Assembly (NCBI RefSeq): GCF_964213995.1
Contig: NC_135803.1
Location: 127,658,001-127,722,000 of the forward strand
Reading direction: 5' to 3'
Origin: Mustelus asterias
Taxonomy: Eukaryota
DNA: 64,000 nucleotides
Part shown: piece by piece, positions 38,936 through 62,460 of the stretch
How the letters are laid out: each line of letters opens with the position of its first letter
Numbering within the stretch: the stretch's first letter is position 1
Notes under the pieces: generated by a model
Database searches by the model: none
Told to the model about the DNA's origin: nothing
Seen by the model: only the letters and a program-made list of their open reading frames with translations
Position numbers and translations under genes: made by a program

Positions 38936-40648
38936 TATGGGAGTTGTTGGGCACTGGAAATGGAGATAGAAGTCAAGGAAAATGGTTGTTGGAGGCCAAA
39001 CCTCTCCGCCCCATTTTCTTTATTAGTGTCACAAGTAGGCCTACTGCAATGAAGTTATTATGAAAATCCCCGAGTTGCCACACTCTGGTGCCTGTTTGGG
39101 TACACTGAGGGAGAATTTAGCATAGCAAATGCACCTAAGTAACACATCTTTCAGACTGTAGGAGGAAACTCATGGACAGAAATTGCAGATTCTGCACCGA
39201 CAGTGACCCAAGCTGGGAATCAAATCTGGGTTCCTGGTGTTGTGAGGCAGTAGTACTAACCGCTGCCACCCTTTCACTGCAGGAGTTCCTAATGTGATCT
39301 TGTGCCAAATCATACTCATCTGCTTCATCAATGACCTTTCCTCCATCATCATAAGGGTATGTTCACTGATGATGACAGTTTTCAGCTTCACTCAATTCGC
39401 CAAATAATGAAGCCATCTATGCCCACATGCAGCATGATCTGGCTTTGGTTGAGAAGGGCAAGTAACATCTGCACCACAAAAATGTCAGACAATGACCATA
39501 TCCACCAAGAGTTTACTTTCTCCTGATTACATTCAATATTGTTACCCTCACTGAATCCTCCACTATCAGTATCCTGGCAGTTACCAACAGTTGGAACTTA
39601 CTGTGGCTACAAGAACAGGTCAGAGGTTGTGCCCAGTGACCTGTCAAAGCCTTTTCATCATCTGGAAGGCTTAAGTCAGGAGTCTGAGAATGGTTCCACT
39701 CACCTGGATGAGTGCAGCTTCAGAAACATTCAAGCTGAACACCATCCCAGACAAATCTGCCCACTTGATCGGTATCACCTTACACATTTGCTCCTTTCAT
39801 CATCCATTTATTTTGGCTGTAGTGTGTACCATCTACAAGATGCAATGCAGTAAGTACCAAGGCTTCTTTGACAATAGCTACCAATGACATGATCTATACT
39901 GTGTAGAAGGGTAGCAAGTGAATGGGAGCACCTGAATACTCATCACAAGCTATCTGACTTGGGAATGTATTGCTATTTCTTCACCACTGCTGGATCAAAC
40001 TCCTGGAACTCTCAATCCAACTGCACTGGGTGGACAATAAATGCTGGCCTTGCCCATGGCAACAAAATCCATCAATGAGTTTTCTTCTTAAATTGCAGTA
40101 AACTAAGATTGTATAATCTGGTGACAAAATATGCACGTGAATTGGTGAGGAAGGAAGAGGTCATTAAAGATGTTGGGAAAGAACTTAGAAATACAAGATA
40201 ACATCAAGTCTGCCCTTGTCCTTCGGGAGGAGCCGAACTGACGTCAAAATAAGCTTGTTAATAATGGGGGTTGATATTGAGTTCAATAAAGGTGTTGGAT
40301 CAAGAAATGGTTTGATTGTATTTTCCTGTATGTGTGCATAGAGTTGTGAGTTATTAATAAACAATCATTGTTCAACTCATACAAGCCTGTAAGACCTCTT
40401 CATAAGACAACATCTAACCTTACAACAATCATCTTAGCTGTGCCAGCAAGTTGTTGTTTCGCTGACTTATTTCAATTGGATGCGGAAAGACCTGCCAAAA
40501 GTTTTCCAAAGCAGGAAATGATGTACAGCTGAGCACAAAAATTGACTATTTGTAAACCACAATGTATGCAATGTGACTGGTATATAACTGTATGGAGGGA
40601 TCCCAGTCACAGGTTTAGCGGAGCAGTTGGCCAGAATTCACTGACAAA

Positions 40649-41375
40649 TGCACCGCCTTTTTATTTCCTTTCGGTACTTTAATTCTAATCCAAAAAGCTA
40701 GTACAAATTAAGTCCAATCATGGTCCCCACATGAGGGACAAACCAGATCCAAGCTGACAAGACATTGCATCCATCTTGGGTTTGATCTTATGGATGCACC
40801 ATGAAAAGCATCCTTTACAGATGTATCACAGCTTGGTATGGCTCCTGCTCTGACCAAGACCACGAGAAACTACAGAGTTGTGAAAGTAGTGCAGTCCATC
40901 ACGCAAATCAGCCTCCCATCCATTGATTCCGTCTACACTTCCCGCTGCCTCTGAAAAGCAGCCAGCGTAATCAAGGACCCCATGCATCCTGAACATTCTC
41001 TCTTCCACCTTCCTCCATTGGGAAAAAGATACAAAATTCAAAGGTCATGTGCCAACCGACTCAAGAACAGCTTCTTCCCTGCTGCCATCAGACCTTTGAA
41101 TGGACCTCTCTTATATTATGTTGATCTTTCTCTGTACCCTAGCTCTGACTGCAACACTATATTCTGCACCTTCTCCTTTCCTTCTCCCCTATATACTCTA
41201 TGAATGGTATGCTTTATCTGTGGAGGGCACAAGAAACAATACTTTTCACTGTATCCCAATACATGTAACAATAATAAATCAAATCAAACAAGATCCAAGC
41301 TGACAGGACGAGGCATTGCACCCCCTCCCAGGCTTGATCTAACGCTTCATCTTAGCCAAAAGGCCGAGATGGCTT
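40649..41375 (-). pseudogene. U2 snRNA-derived element with internal duplication, split by a LINE fragment (40791-41288)
   Basis: Minus strand TCTCGGCCTTTTGGCTAAGATGAAG (41369-41345) matches the U2 5' end; distal part has stem IIa/IIb-like hairpins, TTTTTGGA and GTACC..AGGAA..CGGTGCA resembling the U2 3' end. Confidence 0.75.
40791..41288 (+). mobile_element. Rex1/Babar-like non-LTR retrotransposon 3' fragment
   Basis: Remnant ..ITAWYG..., HPEHSLFHLPPLGKRYK..NRLKNSFFPAAIRPLN; tail ACAATAATAAATCAAATCAAA. Confidence 0.75.
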
Positions 41376-41449
41376 TGAAAAATTGCATCAGGTAAAGCCT
41401 CGGTTTAACCTGAGGTTTAACCTCAGTGACTACCCTGTTCCTTTACTTT

Positions 41450-41577
41450 ACCCTATCGTGGGAAAACCACCATCGCAGGTATCAGCACACCCCTAGTGCA
41501 ATGGGCCAGTCTGGTGCCTTGCTTGATCATTGACTCTCCCCCCCCCGCCGCCGCCGCCGCCGCCGCCGCCGCCAGCC
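41450..41577 (-). pseudogene. U1 snRNA-derived sequence with (GGC)n expansion near its 5' end
   Basis: Minus strand CTGGC(GGC)n..GGGGAGAgtcaATGATCAaGcAAGG...CCATTGCACTaggGgTGTGCTGAtaCCTGCGAT..GGTGGTTTTCCCA versus U1 CTGGCAGGGGAGATACCATGATCACGAAGGTGGTTTTCCCA...CCATTGCACTCCGGATGTGCTGACCCCTGCGAT. Confidence 0.7.
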
Positions 41578-41594
41578 TGGTCCCCTACCTGACC

Positions 41595-41796
41595 GCGGAC
41601 TCTCCCCGCCCCGACCTTCCCACTGCCTGACTGCAGACTCTCCTCCACCCCGCGCCCCCCGGTGAGCATTCACCGCCGGAAGTAGCTAGGCCGGGCCGGA
41701 AGCGCCGTCTCCATGGTAACCAGGTTGTTTGGGCCGGCGGAGAGAGCGGGACAGGTCCAGGATCCAGGATCACACACCCAGTCCCTCAGTGTGAGT
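41595..41796 (+). promoter_or_regulatory. DNAH12 CpG-island promoter and non-coding exon 1 with RFX X-box
   Basis: X-box GTCTCCATGGTAAC (41707-41720), ETS CCGGAAGT (41676) and CCGGAAGC (41696), GC box CCCCGCCCC, donor gtgagt at 41791. Confidence 0.75.
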
Positions 41797-42121
41797 CTCT
41801 GGGCAGCCATCCCGGTGGCGGTGGCGGTGGCGGGGGCGGGCGGGCGGGGGTCTTCAAACCTTTCGGGCAGTTAGCTCAATCCACCATAAATCTCGGTTAA
41901 AGAAGAGGCCGATTGTGGAGGAGCATGAATCGGTGCAGAGACCAAGTCAAAGTGTCTCTCTGTCTTCTCCCTCTCTCCAAAAGACAATATCCTGGTGATT
42001 TATACAGCCAAGCATTACTGTCGGACATATCTGTAATTCTGATTGCAGGATGGTGAGATAAGTCATTTCTCTGGGGCGTGCATTTGTTTAAAGTTTATGT
42101 TACTTTTATCTGCAATATGCA

Positions 42122-42760
42122 TAAACTTTATTTATTAGTGTCACAGTAGGCTTACATTAACATTGCAGTGAAGTTACTGTGAAAATCCCCTAGTCACCAC
42201 ACTCCGGCGCCTGTTCGGGTATCATAGAAATCATAGAAACCCTACAGTGCAGAAGGAGGCCATTCGGCCCATCGAGTCTGCACCGACCACAATCCCACCC
42301 AGGCCCTACCCCCACATATTTACCCGCTAATCCCTCTAACCGACGCATCTCAGGGGCAATTTTTAACCTGGCCAATCAACCTAACCCGCACATCTTTGGA
42401 CTGTGGGAGGAAACCGGAGCACCTGGAGGAAACCCACGCAGACACGAGGAGAATGTGCAAACTCCACACAGACAGTGACCCAAGCCAGGAATTGAGCCCG
42501 GGACCCTGGAGCTGTGAAGCAGCAGTGCTAACCACTGTGCTACCGTGCCGCCCTAGTACGCAGAGGGAGAATTTTTTTAGCACGGCCAATGCACCTAACC
42601 AGCACGTCTTTTGGACTGCGGGAGGAAACTGGAGCACCCGGAGGAAACCCACGCAGAGAACGTGCAGACTCCACACAAATAGTGACCCATGCCAGGAATC
42701 GAACCCGGGTCTCTGGCACTGTGAGGCAGCAGTGCTAACCACTGTGCCACCATGTCACCC
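42122..42760 (-). mobile_element. Nested SINEs: CR1-tailed HE1-like copy (about 42221-42553) inside an alternative-tail copy
   Basis: Two tRNA-like heads (ending 42553 and 42760); the outer body is interrupted at ...CTGTTCGGGTA | GTACGCAGAGGGAGAA. Confidence 0.85.
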
Positions 42761-44206: not shown

Positions 44207-44376
44207 ATGAAAGCCTCGAAGAAAAGTGCCTGTGCACCAGAGTCTGAGAAAATTCGAACTCGATTGCCTCCTATATTTCCAACACCTGACTCAGTGCTGA
44301 ATAATGAATATTCTACAAGCAAACTCATGCATCACAGCTGGCACAAGTATCAGGAGCAGCTCCTTAGCAAGATTAT
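44207..44376 (+). CDS. DNAH12: Axonemal dynein heavy chain 12, first coding exon
   Basis: tttag|ATG AAA GCC...ATT AT|gtaagt; MKASKKSACAPESEKIRTRLPPIFPTPD...SKLMHHSWHKYQEQLLSKI, aligns with the recalled human start (LKLPPIVHLPE..SKLL). Model continues 45254-45344, 46838-46864, 51695-51884, 59770-59845, 63011-63169 and beyond the window. Confidence 0.82.
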
Positions 44377-45253
44377 GTAAGTTGAATGTTCTAATGTTGG
44401 ATGAGCAATGAATAGCTTCCTCAATTTCAGCATCCACATATTAACCCTATCATGTGATGCAGTTTGGATACATTGAGGGTGAATGTTCATAGGGGAAGCA
44501 AACCTTTCTGTGAGGTCGTGACTCCATTAATATACCCCACCTGATTTTCCTTTCCAATGATCTATTACGGTTTTAAGCTCCTACCAAAGTGGAATTTCAT
44601 CTTCACTGAGTTTAAACTCACAGCATTATTTAAGAAAGGATATATTTGCATTGAAGGCTTGAATGAAATTTCATTAGATTAGTCCCTGTTATGAAAGGGA
44701 TGTTCTATAATGAGAGGCTGAGTAAATTGGGTCTATATTTTTTATAGTTTAGAAGAATGAAAGGTTGAATGAAATTGAAATATACAAGATTCTGAAGGGA
44801 TTTGACAGAGTAGACGCTAAGAGTTTGTTTGCTCTGGGCTGGGAAATTTAGAACATGGGCCACAGACTCAGGAGAAGGAAACAATCATGTAGACTAAGAT
44901 ATGGAAAAATTCCTTCACTCAAAGGGTTGTGAATTTTGAAATTCTCTACTGGAGCTGGTTGTGGATGATCCATCATTGAATATATTTAAGGCTGAGATTG
45001 ACATATTTTTGATCTCTTGGGAAACCAAGGGATGTAGGGGCAGGGCAGAAAAGTGAAGTTGAAGCCTAAAATCAGCCAGGATCATATTAAATGCTGGAGT
45101 CATATTGTTTTCTGCCGCTCCTGGTCTTATTTTCTTATGATTCACCAAAAGACCATTTCATCGTGATTACGGGGTTAAACTGATGGATGCACCTACAAGG
45201 TGCAAAGAAGATTCATTGTAGGCTTGATATTTAATTGTTTTTATTATTCTCAG

Positions 45254-50505: not shown

Positions 50506-51694
50506 TGTAATTGGATAACACTGGTCCAACTGACTTTTAAAAATATATATATTATGAGGTATTTTGTGGAATTCTGATGTGACCAGCATCCTGCAAAGAC
50601 ATATGCTGGGGTCTCAACTGTTCACTGTATTCATTATTGGCTTAAAAGGAAAATGAAAGGTAGAATGAGGGGTGCAAGCATAGTTAAAAAGATGTTTTGA
50701 AGGCTTTTATAGGAAGGGAAGCAATGGAAAATTGGAGATGTTGAAGCAAGAGTTACAGAAGATGAGAACAGAGTGATTTAAAAGATCCTAAGTGACATTG
50801 GAGTGAAGAAAATAGTAGGACAGTGTCAGCAGAGAGGTGGAATCTAGGTGTGGGAGGACCAATAAGCAGAGAGTTGGGGAAGCCTATCCTCCAGTTGGTA
50901 AAGACATGAATTAGGGATTCAGCAGTGGTGGTGAGGTAATGGCAGAGAGCAGCAACATTTTGAAGACCAAAGAAAGTGGCCTTGGCAACTTACTAGATGT
51001 GAGGAAGAAAGTTGAGCTCCAGATAAACCAAGAAACTTTGGTTAAACAACTTTGGATTTAGACTATGGTGGCAATTCAGGAGGTTAAAGCAGCCCAAGCT
51101 GAACTCACATAAATATCTACGGGAGCTCAAGAGTTGGTATTTGATTTTGCTGGTATTTATCAAGAGGAATCTTTAGCTTGCTCAAATGTTCATGTAAGGT
51201 GGCAAGATGGCAATACTTCTAGGGGTCTGTGGAGAGGTGGAATTGAATATCATTGTGAGTGTAAAAGCTGACATTCATATTCTGTATAAATGATGAAGCA
51301 AATGCAACACAGGAAAGCTATGGTTCACCAAACGTACTGCCTGGGCACAGGAGAGTGACAATATAGTGCTTCCATTGAGACAGATAGACTAGAATCATGA
51401 AGCAATGCATATATGATTCCTCATCCAGGCTTGTTAATACTTGTGACCTTGTCAATAATTTACTGATTTGATCTTGCTTTATTCGCTCTCCTGCCTTCTA
51501 TTAATATGAATTTTGTATATCAAGCAGAAATACAAAATTTAAAAAAATGAAATTACAGCTTTGGGATTACTGTAATGAAATATGAGGGGGAATTATTTTG
51601 TAGTGTGTGACAGAAGTGTGATGAAATACTAACTACTTCAAATGATTGGTGTTTATCTGAAGTATATCTCCTAATGAGTTCTATGTAATTTCAG

Positions 51695-51884
51695 TTAAAT
51701 TACCTGTTCATGAAGCGATGTGTGGAGAGTAGCCCTGTGGTACCAATCCAGAAGGAGTGGCTGGACTCTATTCTGACTCTGGTACCACGCTCACTGAGAG
51801 AAGGAAAGGTGAGAGAGATCATTGTTAACGAACTATTTGCTGAAGTCGTCGAGGACTTTGAAAAGAGCATGAAGAGATTTCTAG
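51695..51884 (+). CDS. DNAH12: DNAH12 coding exon 4
   Basis: tttcag|TTA AAT TAC...CTA G|gtacgt; LNYLFMKRCVESSPVVPIQKEWLDSILTLVPRSLREGK...DFEKSMKRFL. Confidence 0.92.
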
Positions 51885-54099
51885 GTACGTCATTGTTAAC
51901 ATAAACTGAACATGAATATTCTGGAGACTATTTAATTATTAAATGGACTAGATAATAGAAAATACAACCAACTGATCACTTAAACTGTGCTGAATATCTG
52001 ATCATGTGAAGAATGCCACTTGAAGGAGGAGGATCATTAGTCCTTATATAACACAACTAATATTAGTCACCATCTTCTGAAAAAAAGTATGGGGAGAAAA
52101 TCTGATGATATTATTTGTTGCTGTAACCAAATTTACTGCCTTGGAAAGAGTTATCAGATAGGTGTGTTTCTTAACAAAACAATTAAGTTGAAATGGGTAC
52201 ACCAATTTACAAATGTTTAACTGGTTAATTTTCAATTTTAACAACTACTGAGAAAGGTTTTATTAAACAATAATGTCATATTATCTAAGTATAGAGGGAG
52301 TGGAAAACACTTGCAAAGATGAAACGATAACTGCCAGGTTATACTTATCAGGGAAGGATGTATCTTTATTCTCTTGAAAAAAGATTAAGAGGTGACCTAA
52401 TCGAAGGCTTTAAAGATACATGAATGTTTTTGACAGAGTAGTCACAGAAAAAATTGTTTTCTCTTGAGGGGAGGAGAAAAATTAGAGACTGTTAGCATAA
52501 GCTGGTTGCCAAGCAATCAAATCGAGAACTCAGAAGAAGTCTTTTTATCCAAGTGCTGAGAATGTTAAATTCCCCACCAGGTGGAGTAATTGAGGCAAAT
52601 GGTACAGGTTCATTTAAAGGGAAACAGGATAAGTATATTTAAGTAAGTCTTCTGAACAATGTATGCCATTATTACTGTGCAAGTCGGTCACAACTTGTAG
52701 CCAGGAAGATGTACCCTGTTTTTTGCAAATTACCAAATCACCGATTTGCATTTCTCCACCACTGGCTTTGTGAAAATAGTATCTCTGTAGAATCTTCACA
52801 AAGTTCCCACATTTACTCATGAATTGCCCAATAAACTCTCTACGGACAGTTAATTCTCGTGCTTATCAGCATATGTATCCTTTTGATTACATGTTTTTTA
52901 ATGACTGCCAAAAATCCTCCCTTCTTCTCTTGCCCAGAAGGTGATCAATAATAAGTGTTGAACATTATACCTTCATGTGGTGAGTTGATTTAGGAGATTA
53001 AATAAATGTAAAATTTTAAGAAGTTTATATTTTCTTTACATTTGTCTCTTTTTCTCTTTCACTCAATTCAACCTTTCTTTCTGTGCCTGATTTGATATTG
53101 AATTCGCCTGCTCCAATTTATCCTCCTCCTCAATGATTCATCTGTTCATTTCCCAATCCTAAAATCTTTTTGGTTAATGCGATGCACTATTTGTGCTATT
53201 GTTCACCAGTGTCCCAGGTGCCCTGTTGTCTCACAGCTCTTGTATCAACTCGCACTTCTAGAAATTTTGCAACCAACAGTACACAAACAATTTTAATAAT
53301 GCATGCTGCAAAATACCCTATTTTAGTAAAATCTACCTCATGGGTCCAAACTTTGCAATCAGCAATGAACAAAAGGTAACCAGCTATCCATTACACTTAC
53401 ACCTGCGCACAGATTTGCTATGGGATTTTGCATCAGAACTTGCAGCTAAAATGAGTCTAAAGTAACAGGGCACCCTCTACAAGGCACCTGAGACTTTTGT
53501 GAACAAGAAGAACAACTGTACATCATTAACTGCTCAGATTGGGGAATCCATACTGAGCTCCGCAGGATCTATATCAGGAAGTATAAGCTGGAATAGTTAA
53601 TTCAATACCAAATCAATTGCAAAAAACAAAATAAAATCAAGGAATGGATTTGAGATTAGGCGATAAAATCTTTTATTTAACTTTTTTCAAACTTCCAACA
53701 ATAATTAAAATCTGAAGGAATGAGACTTTACAATTGTAAAGCAAATTTTCAATGTCAAAGAGCTGTTTGTTAGTAATTAAGACTAACCATGTTATTAAAT
53801 AATATTTAGACTTCAATCAACAAGCCTTAACTTTTTCTGGCATGTTTAGTAGGTATCTGTCTGGTAGTTACAACAATATTACTGTCGAATCACTCAGCAA
53901 GAAACTATTCTAGTGAAACTTTTGTCGGAGCAAGGCAACCTGGACAACAGTTTCCTAATTTCTACATTTAACTGTGTATGCGAGTTTGCCAAATGTTGCT
54001 GCTTGATTTACTCCTTAATAACTTTGAACACTGATAGCCCACGGAGATGCGACATAGTTTTTGTGGCCCCTTTCTCAGGCTTTTACTGACCTACTTCAT

Positions 54100-54774: not shown

Positions 54775-57586
54775 AACTTGTAACTTTGATGGTATGAGAC
54801 ATGCAATGGCTAGGATAAGCTGGCAAAGGATACTTAAGGGATTGACAGTGCATAGGCAATGGCAAACATTTAAAGAACACATGTATGAACTTCGGCAACT
54901 GTACATCCCTGTCTGGTGTAAGAGTAAAACAGGGAAGGTGGCTCAACCCTGGCTAACAAGGGAAATCAGGGATAGTGTTAAAGTCAACGAGGACGTGTTG
55001 TGGGAAATGTACCACTGAGTCAGGCTTGAAGGTTTCAAGAATACAGTTTTATTTTAACGAAGCTTCGTGGAGACAAGGCACTAACAAGCAGCAAACCTTC
55101 TCTCAATGAGACAATAGGAGAGGTCCATCTTTATACCCTTTACACAATAGATGGACCGGACATCTAGCCATTATCACATCATTGTAATCAAGTAGGTGAT
55201 CGATCGTTAACACATCGTTATAGACAGATACAGACATAAGCATGTTAACATCACATTGTTTCATAGGATGGGTACATTTTCCCTATCAATGACTTTAGTT
55301 TCGGTCTATTCATACAGTAATTTACAGTAATTGGTTTTCCTGCATTTATGTATTCCCGATCCCATCTGTAGCTAATCTCTTTACCCAACCCTATTGTCCT
55401 TATCCTAAAGAGTGCCTCAAGCCCTGGCTGGCTTCCTGCAGGATCTGATTCCTGCATATTTAACTTTAAATAGCTGTCTGTCCTTTATGTTTTCATCTCA
55501 AGTGGCTGTCTGTACTAAAAGTCAGTGCCTGTTTAATGTCTCTTTCCCAGGCGACTGTTTATGTGCCAGGCAGTCATTTTTTAAAGTGTACTCATCTGTA
55601 TATTTTTCCCCACTTCAGGAGGCATATAAATTGGCCAGAAAAAGCACCAAACCTGAGGACTGGGAGAAATTTAAAATTCAGCAGAAGGGACAACGGGGTT
55701 TAATTTGGAAGGGGCAAATAGAATACAAAAATAAGCTTGCAGAAAACATAAAAACTGACTATAAAAGCTTCTATAGGTATGTGAAGAGAAAAAGACTGGT
55801 GAAGACAAATGTAGGTCCCTTACAGTTAGAATCAGGTGAATTCATAATGGGCAACAAAGAGATGGCAGACCAGCTGAACAAATACTCTGGATCTGTCTTA
55901 ACTAAGGAGGACACAAATAATCTTCCAGAAATAATAGGGGACAGAGGGTCTAGCATGAAGGAGGAACTGAAGAAAATCCTTAAGAGTCAGGAAATTGTAT
56001 TGGGGAAATTGCTGGGATTAAAACCCGGTAAGTCCCCAGGGCTTGATGCTCTGTATCCCAGAGTACTTAAGGAAGCGGTCCTAGAAATAGTGGACGCATT
56101 GGTGATCAGTTTCCAGCATTCTCTAGACTCTGGAAGAGTTCCAGTGGGTTGGAGGGTAGCTAATGTAACCCCACTTTTCAAAAAAGGACGGAGAGAGAAA
56201 ACGGGGAATTATAGACCAGTTAGCCTGACATCAATGGTGGGGAAAATGCTGAAGTCAATTATTAAGAATGTAATGACTGAGCATTTGGAAAGCAGCGACA
56301 GAATCGGTCCAAGTCAGCTTGGATTCACTAAAGGGAAATTGTGCTTGACGAATCTTCTGCAATTTTTTGAGGATGTGACCAGTAGAGTGCAAGGCTGAAC
56401 CAGTCTGGACTTTCAAAAGACCTTTGACAAGGTCCCACACAGGAGATTAATGAGCAAAATTAAAACTCATGGTATTGGGGGTAATGTATTGATGTGGATA
56501 GAGAACTGGTTGGCAGACAGGAAGCAGAGAGTGGGAATCAATGGATCCTTTTCAGAGTGGCAGGCAGTGACTAGTGGGGTACCGCAGGGTTCAGTGCTGG
56601 GACTCCAGCTGTTCACAATATACGTTAATGACTTGGACGAAAGAATTTAATGCAATATCTCCAAATTTGCAGATGACACTAAGCTGGGTGGCAGTGTGTG
56701 CTGTGAGGAGGATGCTAAAAGGCTGCAGGGTGACTTGGACAGGCTGACTGAGTGGGCAAATGCTTGGCAAATGCAATATAATGTGGATAAATGTGAGGTT
56801 ATCCACTTTGGTGGCAAAAACATGAAGGAAGATTATTATCTGAATGGTGGTAGTTTAGGAAAAGGGGAAGTGCAACATGACCTGGGTGTCATGGTGGAAT
56901 AGTGGCTGAAGGTTGGAATGAAGCAGGCACTGAGGAAAGCTAATGGCATGCTGGCCTTCATAGCATGAGGATTTGAGTATAGGAGTAAGAATGTCTTGGT
57001 GCAGTTATACAGGGCCTTGGGTGAGGCCACATCTTGAGTATTGTGTGTACTTTTGGTCTCCTAGTCTGAGGAAGGACATTCTTGCTATTGAGGGAGTCCA
57101 GCGAAGATTCACCAGCCTGATTCCTGGAATAGCAGGACTGACATGAAGAGAGACTGGATCGACTGGATCACTGGAAGATAGAAGAATGAGAGGGGATCTC
57201 ATAGAAACATGTAAAATCCTGGTGAGACTGGATAGGCTAGATGTGGGAAGAATGTTCCTGATGTTGGTAGGTCCTGAACTAGGGATCACAGTCTAAGAAT
57301 AAGGGATAAGCCATTCAGGACTGAGGTGAGGAAGAACTTCTCCATTCAGAGAGTTGCGAACCTGTGGAATTTTCTACCACAGAAAGCTGTTGGGGCCAGT
57401 TCGTTAGATGTGTTCAAGAAAGAGCTTGATGTGGCTCTTGCGACTAAAGGGATCAAGGGGTATGGAAAGAAAGCAGGAGAGGGATACTGAAAGTGCATGA
57501 TCAGCCATGATCATATTGAATGGTGGTGCAGGCTCAAAGGGCCAAATGGCCTACTCCTGCACCTATTTTCTATGTTTCTATGTTTT
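54775..57586 (+). mobile_element. CR1 LINE, 5'-truncated, interrupted by a solo LTR
   Basis: ORF2 pieces 54794.., 55618-56398 (KSPGLDALYPRVLKE, GNYRPVSLTS), 56450..56650 ([10 protein letters not shown]), 56696..56902; tail TTTCTATGTTTCTATG. Confidence 0.95.
54996..55617 (-). mobile_element. Solo LTR (endogenous retrovirus-like), 622 bp
   Basis: TG...CA termini with inverted ends TGTTGTGGGAAA / TTTCCCCACTTCA; flanks GGACG / GGAGG (5-bp TSD, 1 mismatch); TATAAA then AATAAA on minus; CR1 sequence resumes after it. Confidence 0.8.
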
Positions 57587-60218: not shown

Positions 60219-62460
60219 AGTGGTCTCTGTTCTCAAACAGGGCACAGACACAGAAATCAAATTACAGAATACTGATTAGAATGCAAATCTCTACAGCCAG
60301 CCAGGTCTTAAATGTACAGACAATGTGGGGGGAGGGAGCATTCAACACAGGTTAAAGAGATGTGTATTGTCTCCAGACAGTACAGCTTGTGAAATTGTGC
60401 AAGTCCAGGAGGCAAGCTGTGGGGGTTACTGATAATGTGACATAAATCCAACATCCCGGTTTAGACCGTCCTCACGTGTGCGGAACTTGGCTATCAGTTT
60501 CTGCTCAGTGACTCTGCGCTGTCGTGTGTCGTGAAGGCCGCCTTGGAGAACGCTTACCTGAAGATCCAAGGCTGAATGCCCGTGACTGCTGAAGTGCTCC
60601 CCCACAGGAAGAGAACAGTCTTGCCTGGTGATTGTCGAGCGGTGTTCATTCATCCGTTGTCGTAGCGTCTGCATGGTTTCCCCAATGTACCATGCCTCGG
60701 GACATCCTTTCTTGCAGCGTATCAGGGAGACAACGTTGGCCGAGTTGCAAGAGTAGGTACCGTGTACCTGGTAGATGGTGTTCTCACGTGAGATGATGGC
60801 ATCCGTGTTGATGATCCGGCACGTCTTGCAGAGGTTGCTGTGGCAGGGTTGTGTGATGTCGTGGTCACTGTTCTCCTGAAGGCTGGGTAGTTTGCTGCGG
60901 ACAATGGTCTGTTTGAGGTTCCGTGGTTGTTTGAAGGCAAGAAGTGGGGGTGTGGGGATGGCCTTGGCGAGATGTTCGTCTTCATCAATGACATGTTGAA
61001 GGCTCCGGAGGAGATGCCGTAGCTTCTCCGCTCCGGGGAAGTACTGGACGACGAAGGGTACTCTGTCCACCGTGTCCCGTGTTTGTCTTCTGAGGAGGTC
61101 GGTGCGGTTTTTCACTGTGGCGCGTCGGAACTGTTGATCGATGAGTCGAGCGCCATATCCTGTTCTTATGAGGGCATCTTTCAGCGTCTGGAGGTGTCTG
61201 TTGCGATCCTCCTCATCCGAGCAGATCCTGTGTATTCGGAGGGCTTGTCCGTAGGGGATGGCTTCTTTTACGTGTTTAGGGTGGAAGCTGGAGAAGTGGA
61301 GCATCATGAGGTTATCCGTGGGCTTGCGGTACAGTGAGGTGCTGAGGTGACCGTCCTTAATGGAGATGCGTGTGTCCAAGAATGCAACCGATTCCGGAGA
61401 GTAGTCCATGGTGAGTCTGATGGTTCCAAGAATGCAACCGATTCCGGAGAGTAGTCCATGGTGAGCCTGATGGTTCCAAGAATGCAACCGATTCCGGAGA
61501 GTAGTCCTCATAAGAACAGGATATGGCGCTCGACTCATCGATCAACAGTTCCGATGCGCCACAGCGAAAAACCGCACCGACCTCCTCAGAAGACAAACAC
61601 GGGGCACGGTGGACAGAGTACCCTTCGTCGTCCAGTACTTCCCCGGAGCGGAGAAGCTACGGCATCTCCTCCGGAGCCTTCAACATGTCATTGATGAAGA
61701 CGAACATCTCGCCAAGGCCATCCCCACACCCCCACTTCTTGCCTTCAAACAACCACGGAACCTCAAACAGACCATTGTCCGCAGCAAACTACCCAGCCTT
61801 CAGGAGAACAGTGACCACGACACCACACAACCCTGCCACAGCAACCTCTGCAAGACGTGCCGGATCATCAACACGGATGCCATCATCTCACGTGAGAACA
61901 CCATCTACCAGGTACACGGTACCTACTCTTGCAACTCGGCCAACGTTGTCTACCTGATACGCTGCAAGAAAGGATGTCCCGAGGCATGGTACATTGGGGA
62001 AACCATGCAGACGCTACGACAACGGATGAATGAACACCGCTCGACAATCACCAGGCAAGACTGTTCTCTTCCTGTGGGGGAGCACTTCAGCAGTCACGGG
62101 CATTCAGCCTTGGATCTTCAGGTAAGCATTCTCCAAGGCGGCCTTCACGACACACGACAGCGCAGAGTCACTGAGCAGAAACTGATAGCCAAGTTCCGCA
62201 CATGTGAGGACGGTCTAAACCAGGATGTTGGATTTATGTCACATTATCAGTAACCCCCACAGCTTGCCTCCTGGACTTGCACAATTTCACAAGCTGTACT
62301 GTCTGGAGACAATACACATCTCTTTAACCTGTGTTGAATGCTCCCTCCCCCCACATTGTCTGTACATTTAAGACCTGGCTGGCTGTAGAGATTTGCATTC
62401 TAATCAGTATTCTGTAATTTGATTTCTGTGTCTGTGCCCTGTTTGAGAACAGAGACCACT

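Follow-up and report, generated by a model that had tools for sequence, protein, structure and literature searches.

Retroposons headed by snRNA sequence are known as SINEU-1, -2 and -3 of crocodilians, which have Tx1-Mar as their partner; in the portion of the report drawn on here, none was found outside crocodilians and their transcription was left open (Kojima 2015, PMC4494074). Insertion specific to U1 genes has been described for Dada-U1, whose members differ from the elements reported here in being DNA transposons with TSDs of 6-7 bp, no A-tail and, within the sections cited, no snRNA-headed SINE offspring (PMC8869645). A 2015 list of snRNA-targeting elements holds, in the excerpt available, no U1-targeting retrotransposon (PMC4640811). 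Chimeric retrocopies of the U6-L1 type likewise consist of a 5' snRNA piece joined to another RNA by a LINE enzyme (cited in PMC4494074). According to the cited part of the same source, these chimeras arise singly, whereas the internal junctions of the family described below are common to hundreds of copies, and therefore master copies were amplified.

Here, we analyzed a 64,000-nt stretch of shark DNA (the window, to which all positions without a contig refer) containing a copy of a retroposon family built from U1, U4 and U2 pieces, termed family A. Like SINEU-2 as presented in the passages cited, family A is shorter than 500 nt, carries 5' U1 and 3' U2 pieces and a polyA tail, and shows snRNA heads added repeatedly, duplications within the element, runs of oligo-T and TSDs that are present only sometimes; as in SINEU, there is a likely Tx1 partner whose 5' end carries snRNA sequence (PMC4494074). 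Several of the characteristics by which SINEU is recognized, namely a U1-derived head, multiple copies with shared internal junctions, a length below 500 nt with polyA and some TSDs, and recurrent snRNA-head addition, were found, the last of them as stacked heads and as a U2-headed sister family on the same body. Unlike SINEU, family A belongs to another vertebrate lineage and contains a U4 piece and two added hairpins. Moreover, SINEU prefers Mariner-N4, whereas no common transposon flank was noticed for family A, and U1 and U2 genes are joined directly to elements here, while no such junction is reported for SINEU in the text consulted (PMC4494074). Family A is likely independent of crocodilian SINEU, the likeness considered here being one of features. 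No snRNA-headed SINE of sharks was found in the literature, which was covered mostly as titles and the openings of abstracts, Repbase and Dfam entries lying outside that scope.

The composite copy upstream of DNAH12

The window copy extends over 40658-41541 on the minus strand as a mosaic of U1, U4 and U2 sequence with an A-tail, is split by a later insert, and has lost any recognizable trace of U1 nt 1-14. Its two halves are 86.9% and 89.8% identical to a consensus of 29 copies. A BLASTN comparison of the whole window with the genome's own snRNA genes (U1 and U2 in arrays on C8 and C24, respectively, U4 and U5 in other places) confirmed the initial annotation, in which U1-like and then U2-like pieces of the minus strand are interrupted by an insert and point away from DNAH12. 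That annotation had the U1 segment begin at 41577. U1 sequence is present, but the main head starts at 41541, the interval of about 41576-41542 upstream of it is a GGC/G run, and upstream of this run lies an extra decayed U1 head, forming a 5' extension at 41577-41610 (minus strand; score 39, reached by 0 of 1000 shuffles).

The individual parts, all on the minus strand, could be assigned as follows. The main head (41517-41541) corresponds to U1 nt ~15-38 and is of a variant U1 type, as in the full U1 retrocopies L213 and L217. Next to it are U1 nt 52-96, comprising stem-loop II with the U1A loop (41471-41515; BLASTN with the genome's own U1 gene, E 8.5e-9), a second short U1 piece of nt ~38-52 placed by consensus alignment (41457-41470), and a likely decayed older U1 head of variant nt ~11-33 (41434-41456), recognized by eye from the less decayed copies L226, L216, L208 and L233. 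U4 nt 23-47, from the 5' stem-loop region, follow at 41397-41433 (own U4 gene; p 0.004 and 0.022 for the window copy). This U4 piece lies in what had been described as a spacer with a palindrome; the palindrome does exist at 41410-41426, but it arose when 12 nt were duplicated in this copy alone, is missing from all 29 further copies in the alignment and has no meaning at the family level. Further downstream, U2 nt 7-34 (stem-loop I) lie at 41342-41369 with 26/28 identity (BLASTN E 1.5e-6), followed by the first of two duplicated internal hairpins at 41283-41340 (consensus self-alignment; fold and covariation), the second hairpin together with U2 nt 44-87 (stem-loops IIa/IIb) at 40720-40787 (U2 match at 40762-40720, E 2.2e-4), and a U2 Sm-site-like stretch with a short family tail and A-rich end at 40658-40719. 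In an Rfam scan of the unjoined window, nothing reached a gathering score: U1 gave no match, and U2 scored 27 bits (E 0.018) against a gathering score of 46. The window copy carries no trailing U1 remnant.

The insert had been placed at 40791-41288; it is indeed there, with an extent of 40788-41282 on the plus strand and an upper edge that is ambiguous up to 41288. This later addition of ~500 nt is a very high-copy repeat, its summed contig depth in run X11 reaching 1e5-1e6, and probably represents the 3' end of a LINE; none of the three ORFs tested had a Pfam match. Contigs that join across the insert, skipping it, were present in 4/4 runs, which come from four other organisms. One contig of run X11 represents the orthologous locus with the 3' part of the element and covers 40300-40760 with 32 differences in 459, while the orthologous contig of organism E ceases to align at 41672.

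Directly behind the A-tail, a candidate 3' TSD (40648-40657, minus strand) is 9/10 identical to a candidate 5' TSD at 41668-41677 (minus strand). The pair 41677-41668/40657-40648 has a chance probability of 0.012 (2000 shuffles of 259 nt) and is suggestive only. Should it be real, the insertion would reach 41667, up to an ETS-like motif, and might thus have supplied part of the CpG island.

This island lies upstream of DNAH12, the neighboring gene on the plus strand, which was identified by an exon at 51689-51901 matching DNAH12 in the PDB (E 5.6e-23); its probable first coding exon is located at 44207-44377 on the plus strand (weak PDB match to DNAH12 residues 4-55, E 0.16). Over 41500-41900, the GC content is 0.63-0.72 and the CpG o/e is 0.65-0.84. 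Two motifs that we take to be ETS-like (41676-41683) and X-box-like (41707-41720) are found in the island, outside the element. In three runs presumed to be RNA, no contig covers 41506-41900; the family-like contigs that are present are uninformative on strand, start and level. Just downstream of the island, two nested tRNA-headed SINE copies, presumably of the HE1 type, are located at 42100-42760. DNAH12 introns further contain a 260-aa ORF (61471-62250, plus strand), to which we ascribe GIY-YIG-like motifs and probably an origin from a Penelope-type element, and broken CR1/L2-like reverse-transcriptase ORFs, recognized by eye (55409-56899, plus strand).

Copy number, age and structure of family A

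A genome search with 41289-41545 returned 2719 first-look candidates, of which 40 were scored. All 39 non-self scored matches (81-87% identity) span query positions from <=41 to >=255 and hence include both the U1 and the U2 parts, so that the recurrent U1-U2 linkage looked for in the initial annotation was borne out. The alignment of 29 copies resulted in a 389-nt consensus with U1 +1 as its first nucleotide and an A-rich tail at its 3' end. It opens with U1 1-38, U1 49-96 and U1 38-52, continues with the older U1 head and U4 23-47, and passes through an Sm-like stretch into U2 7-34; one or two hairpins then precede U2 ~44-102, and a short tail with an A-run closes the element. Consensus positions 1-85 match the genome's own U1 1-96 at 81/96 positions (score 134 vs. 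a shuffle maximum of 28), positions 86-108 match U1 38-61 at 20/24 (29 vs. 28), positions 123-147 match the own U4 gene at 23/25 (E 6.7e-6; 43 vs. 35), and positions 269-352 match U2 23-102 (51 vs. 38). The spacer matches U1 and U2 at chance level. An origin of any part from U5 or from antisense snRNA was rejected, the matches being at chance level. Rfam gave no match over the element to the tRNA, 7SL or 5S head of a classical Pol III SINE, the head being U1, and T runs occur inside the element.

A 22-nt internal motif had 277 matches in the genome (71 of them exact) as compared to 0 for the reversed control, corresponding to roughly 1,000-1,100 motif-bearing copies under the assumption of uniform divergence. 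Among 30 loci picked by this motif, which is a decayed U1 head and so not snRNA-free but did not select the pieces scored, the threshold was reached by the U1 head in 25, by the U2 5' piece in 16 and by the U2 stem-loop II piece in 15; the U1 head and the U2 5' piece were found together in 13/30. The same three pieces were detected at 0, 2 and 1 of 300 random places, respectively.

The copies are truncated to a variable degree at their 5' starts, which are concentrated between U1 +1 and +20, and A-tails are present. Junction-anchored TSDs were observed in 7/53 copies (null 0.000) and in 2/11 copies of another set (null 1/110), 46/53 being without a clear TSD. The dispersed copies with their common A-tail and TSDs bear out the proposal of an snRNA-headed retroposon family. 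The sequence 3' of the A-tails showed no preference (45 tails). Since the copies share a median of 91% identity with the consensus (n=58) and at most 92.5% with each other (median 83.8%, 2331 pairs), family A is an old family without young copies.

No U1 promoter was found upstream of family-A copies: the best score reached 38 in a set of 85 copies and 44 in 29 full-head loci (the correctly oriented ones, L207 being mis-oriented and left out), as compared to 470 for the real gene L232; copy L259 likewise has none upstream. Neither did 20 stretches of U1 clusters (186.5 kb) contain a family-A copy. The properties of a functional U1 or U2 variant gene were not found, the window scoring below the Rfam gathering score and sister copies having no upstream promoter.

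Two U1 variants occur as family-A heads, and stacked and variant heads were seen in L010, L185, L221, L226 and the window copy. Retrocopies and at least one promoter-bearing gene, which is now disrupted, represent a second variant of U1, in which stem-loop I has undergone compensatory changes (L213, L217, L257, L260). In the older forms L208, L216, L226 and L233, the heads consist of U1 1-51/52; the U1/U2 junction of SINEU-2 is near nt 53-58 according to the cited section of PMC4494074. Directly behind the family-A copies L222 and L185, a U2 5' head was noted; in L222, 18 nt of this head recur as a TSD-like repeat.

Tx1 elements, a U2-headed sister family and junctions with snRNA genes

In the U2 array L055 (G000:C24:44838000-44847500) and its neighbors, an 8035-bp unit with a broken Tx1-type LINE is repeated in at least 15 units. 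The domains of this LINE are a ZCCHC3-like ORF1, zf-CCHC, EN, RT and zf-RVT. Behind the LINE, U2 resumes at nt 38, and Tx1 lies within U2 genes at nt 38 in L055, L117 and L127. As an APE-type Tx1 element within U2 at nt 37/38, the L055 LINE resembles Keno in the parts of the sources used here (PMC4494074, PMC4640811); the name would denote a likeness by domains and target rather than a placement in an RT tree. Unlike Keno as described in the accessible part of PMC4640811, most of the sampled Tx1 copies are dispersed and related ones join U1 at ~36-40. The Tx1 family is young and dispersed (5303 candidates), and the three full-length 5' ends found outside U2 arrays all begin with U2 5' sequence.

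A second family, family B, is a U2-headed SINE that has the spacer and body in common with family A. At 7/27 distinct Tx1 loci, a copy of it lies immediately behind the tail, the TSDs being repeated, and U2 from nt 38 onward comes after it in L127 and L108. Family B is young, its top matches being 97-98% identical, and TSDs were found in 22/30 copies vs. a null of 1.6%. Comparison of the tails with the Tx1 3' UTR yielded p 0.08 for family B, while the family-A tail did not match the Tx1 3' UTR of L055 (p 0.38) and 0/103 family-A copies lie behind a Tx1 3' end. The case for mobilization by Tx1 at a shared target is strong for family B; for family A it is confined to the shared U1 junction, with the tail match and the adjacency negative. 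Taken alone, the family-B spacer gave no significant match to U4 (p 0.41).

Across 19 family-A and family-B cores, two-sided changes were present at 8/44 pairs and 97.2% of cells were paired, as compared to 27-49% in slid controls, figures that reflect few independent events, counts inflated by related rows and a structure that had itself been predicted from this alignment. The fold z values of the consensus sequences are -3.7 (A) and -9.2 (B).

Trains of Tx1 and two to three U2-headed SINEs at one site were noticed in L122, L116, L102 and L161, with an identical TSD between successive members in L122 and L116. A third variant with a U2 head and a clearer U4-like piece (L192, L194; G000:C1418) resides in a U4 gene cluster beside Tx1 ends.

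Junctions were also found at U1. In L080, U1 ~37-70 and then another A-tail lie behind a family-A copy, and in L234, within a U1 array, a Tx1 3' end is joined to U1 ~37-163, which continues into the normal unit. Two search patterns, consisting of an A-run and then U1 from nt 36-43 of either the common or the variant U1, matched two (common) and four (variant) places, and controls gave 0. All six places are retroelement tails, namely family A in L254, L258 and L259, older Tx1 ends in L256 and L257, and L260. The latter is a variant U1 gene in which U1 1-46 is followed by Tx1, a U2-headed SINE and then U1 ~37 to the end with a 3'-box-like flank; its promoter is of the U1 type, the match to three U1 promoters being reached by 0/200 shuffles. 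The patterns fix the junction window by design and cannot show avoidance of other U1 positions; L080, L234 and L198 were found without this positional bias. In L198 (G000:C15:78082675-78085789), a complete U5 gene is followed by a B-like U2-headed SINE and then by U5 38-115 and ~75 nt of repeated flank, a long duplication whose junction at nt 38 is the position of the U2 site. U1 3' sequence trails four family-A copies (L080, L254, L258 and L259), and these pieces stop inside U1; among the 74 family-A copies with an intact 3' end, only two have U1 behind them. One locus with a family-A tail and then head-like U1 sequence (L204) is ambiguous and was left out of the counts. At L243-L245 (G000:C8:13.03-13.07 Mb), a 3' fragment of Tx1 and a piece of U1 (111-147) were seen in the spacer of a ~2.3 kb U1 array unit. 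Taken together, the entry point of Tx1 and of these SINEs lies near +37 in U2 as well as in U1 genes.

Origin of the U1 heads

In our preferred interpretation, to which we assign a probability of about 0.6, the window feature is an old, interrupted copy of a dispersed, U1-headed and U4/U2-bodied family that was likely copied by Tx1 (Keno-type) from sources likely inside U1 genes, using the U1 promoter. The Tx1 endonuclease would nick U1 genes near +37, as it would U2 at 37/38, and the inserted element would then be preceded by the U1 promoter with U1 1 to ~50 and followed by U1 from 37 to its end. Read-through RNA could give rise to new dispersed copies that begin with a U1 head and, in some cases, carry a U1 remnant behind them, and repeated rounds would stack U1, U4 and U2 pieces. 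The U1 1-51/52 heads of the older family-A forms fit this scheme, because a nick at 37 together with a TSD of ~15 nt predicts that length. That family A used U1 promoters is likely, and no source copy was found. Speaking against the scheme are the lack of a U1 promoter upstream of the family-A copies and of family-A copies in the U1 clusters, the tail that does not match the sampled Tx1, the absence of family-A copies behind Tx1 3' ends, the many copies with no clear TSD, the rarity of U1 behind intact 3' ends and the window copy's want of a trailing U1 piece.

The main rival, which we regard as possible though rather unlikely, leaves the family and its Tx1 partner unchanged and ascribes the U1 heads and trailing pieces to template switching from the element RNA to the abundant U1 snRNA during reverse transcription, with transcription from assorted host Pol II promoters, as in the model that Kojima proposed for SINEU. 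The use of two U1 variants as heads, the common occurrence of stacked heads (L010, L185, L221 and the window copy), the lack of any family-A copy behind a U1 promoter and the ends of the trailing pieces within U1 in L080, L254, L258 and L259 are all in line with it, as is its similarity to the 5' addition described for SINEU-2 (cited passage of PMC4494074). However, L234, L257 and L260 run past the U1 3' end into the gene flank and, because the sequence continues in this way, represent insertions in U1 DNA; moreover, the junctions recur at nt 36-40, as at the U2 site, which also argues against switching.

Two readings concern the window itself. The initial annotation had the copy positioned to be read by divergent transcription from the DNAH12 promoter; in the reading considered here, it would be transcribed in this way and would have been a source copy or have been co-opted into the promoter. 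With a real TSD at 41677-41668 (p 0.012), the copy would abut the ETS-like motif; its 5' extension is GC-rich, and the 3' part of the insertion is present in another organism (X11 contig). This reading is nevertheless improbable: the identity of 87-90% to the consensus is that of ordinary decay, neither DNAH12-promoter sequence nor the 12-nt duplication is present in the 29 aligned copies, and flanking CpG islands were found for 0/85 family-A copies and 1/30 family-B copies. Reading from a host CpG-island promoter hence finds no support as a trait of the family and, because of the same 0/85, the place beside the DNAH12 promoter looks incidental, a matter of chance. We consider the window copy an ordinary decayed family-A member that is probably dead. 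The other origin put forward earlier, from variant U1 and U2 genes that once lay side by side and left a relic, or a chance neighborhood of snRNA pseudogenes would agree with the finding of retrocopies and at least one gene of the variant U1 that has this head (L213, L217, L260). Such an origin is refuted by the recurrence of the composite and retains hardly any probability: order and junctions are fixed in dozens of dispersed copies with A-tails and TSDs, the snRNA pieces are partial and rearranged, no snRNA promoter lies upstream of any copy tested, and the real genes are in arrays on other contigs.

Insertion of a family-A ancestor into U1 genes, the reading we prefer, may be one case of a more general behavior, which we put forward tentatively and with more doubt than conviction: a single Tx1 lineage may nick Pol II snRNA genes ~37 nt past the start whatever the sequence (U2 at 37/38, U1 at ~36-40 and one case of U5 at 37/38), directed there by the snRNA promoter or the machinery of that promoter, so that promoterless SINEs would be bred in U1, U2 and U4 genes, in sharks and, convergently, in crocodilians. 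If such fixed-position targeting is true, each insertion would hand the passenger SINE a promoter and a new head. The shark families reported here, built from U1, U4 and U2, represent a second lineage beside crocodilians and come together with junctions inside promoter-bearing U1 and U2 genes. For SINEU, a class of SINEs without an internal promoter, insertion into snRNA genes offers a testable answer to the question of where the promoter and the head come from.
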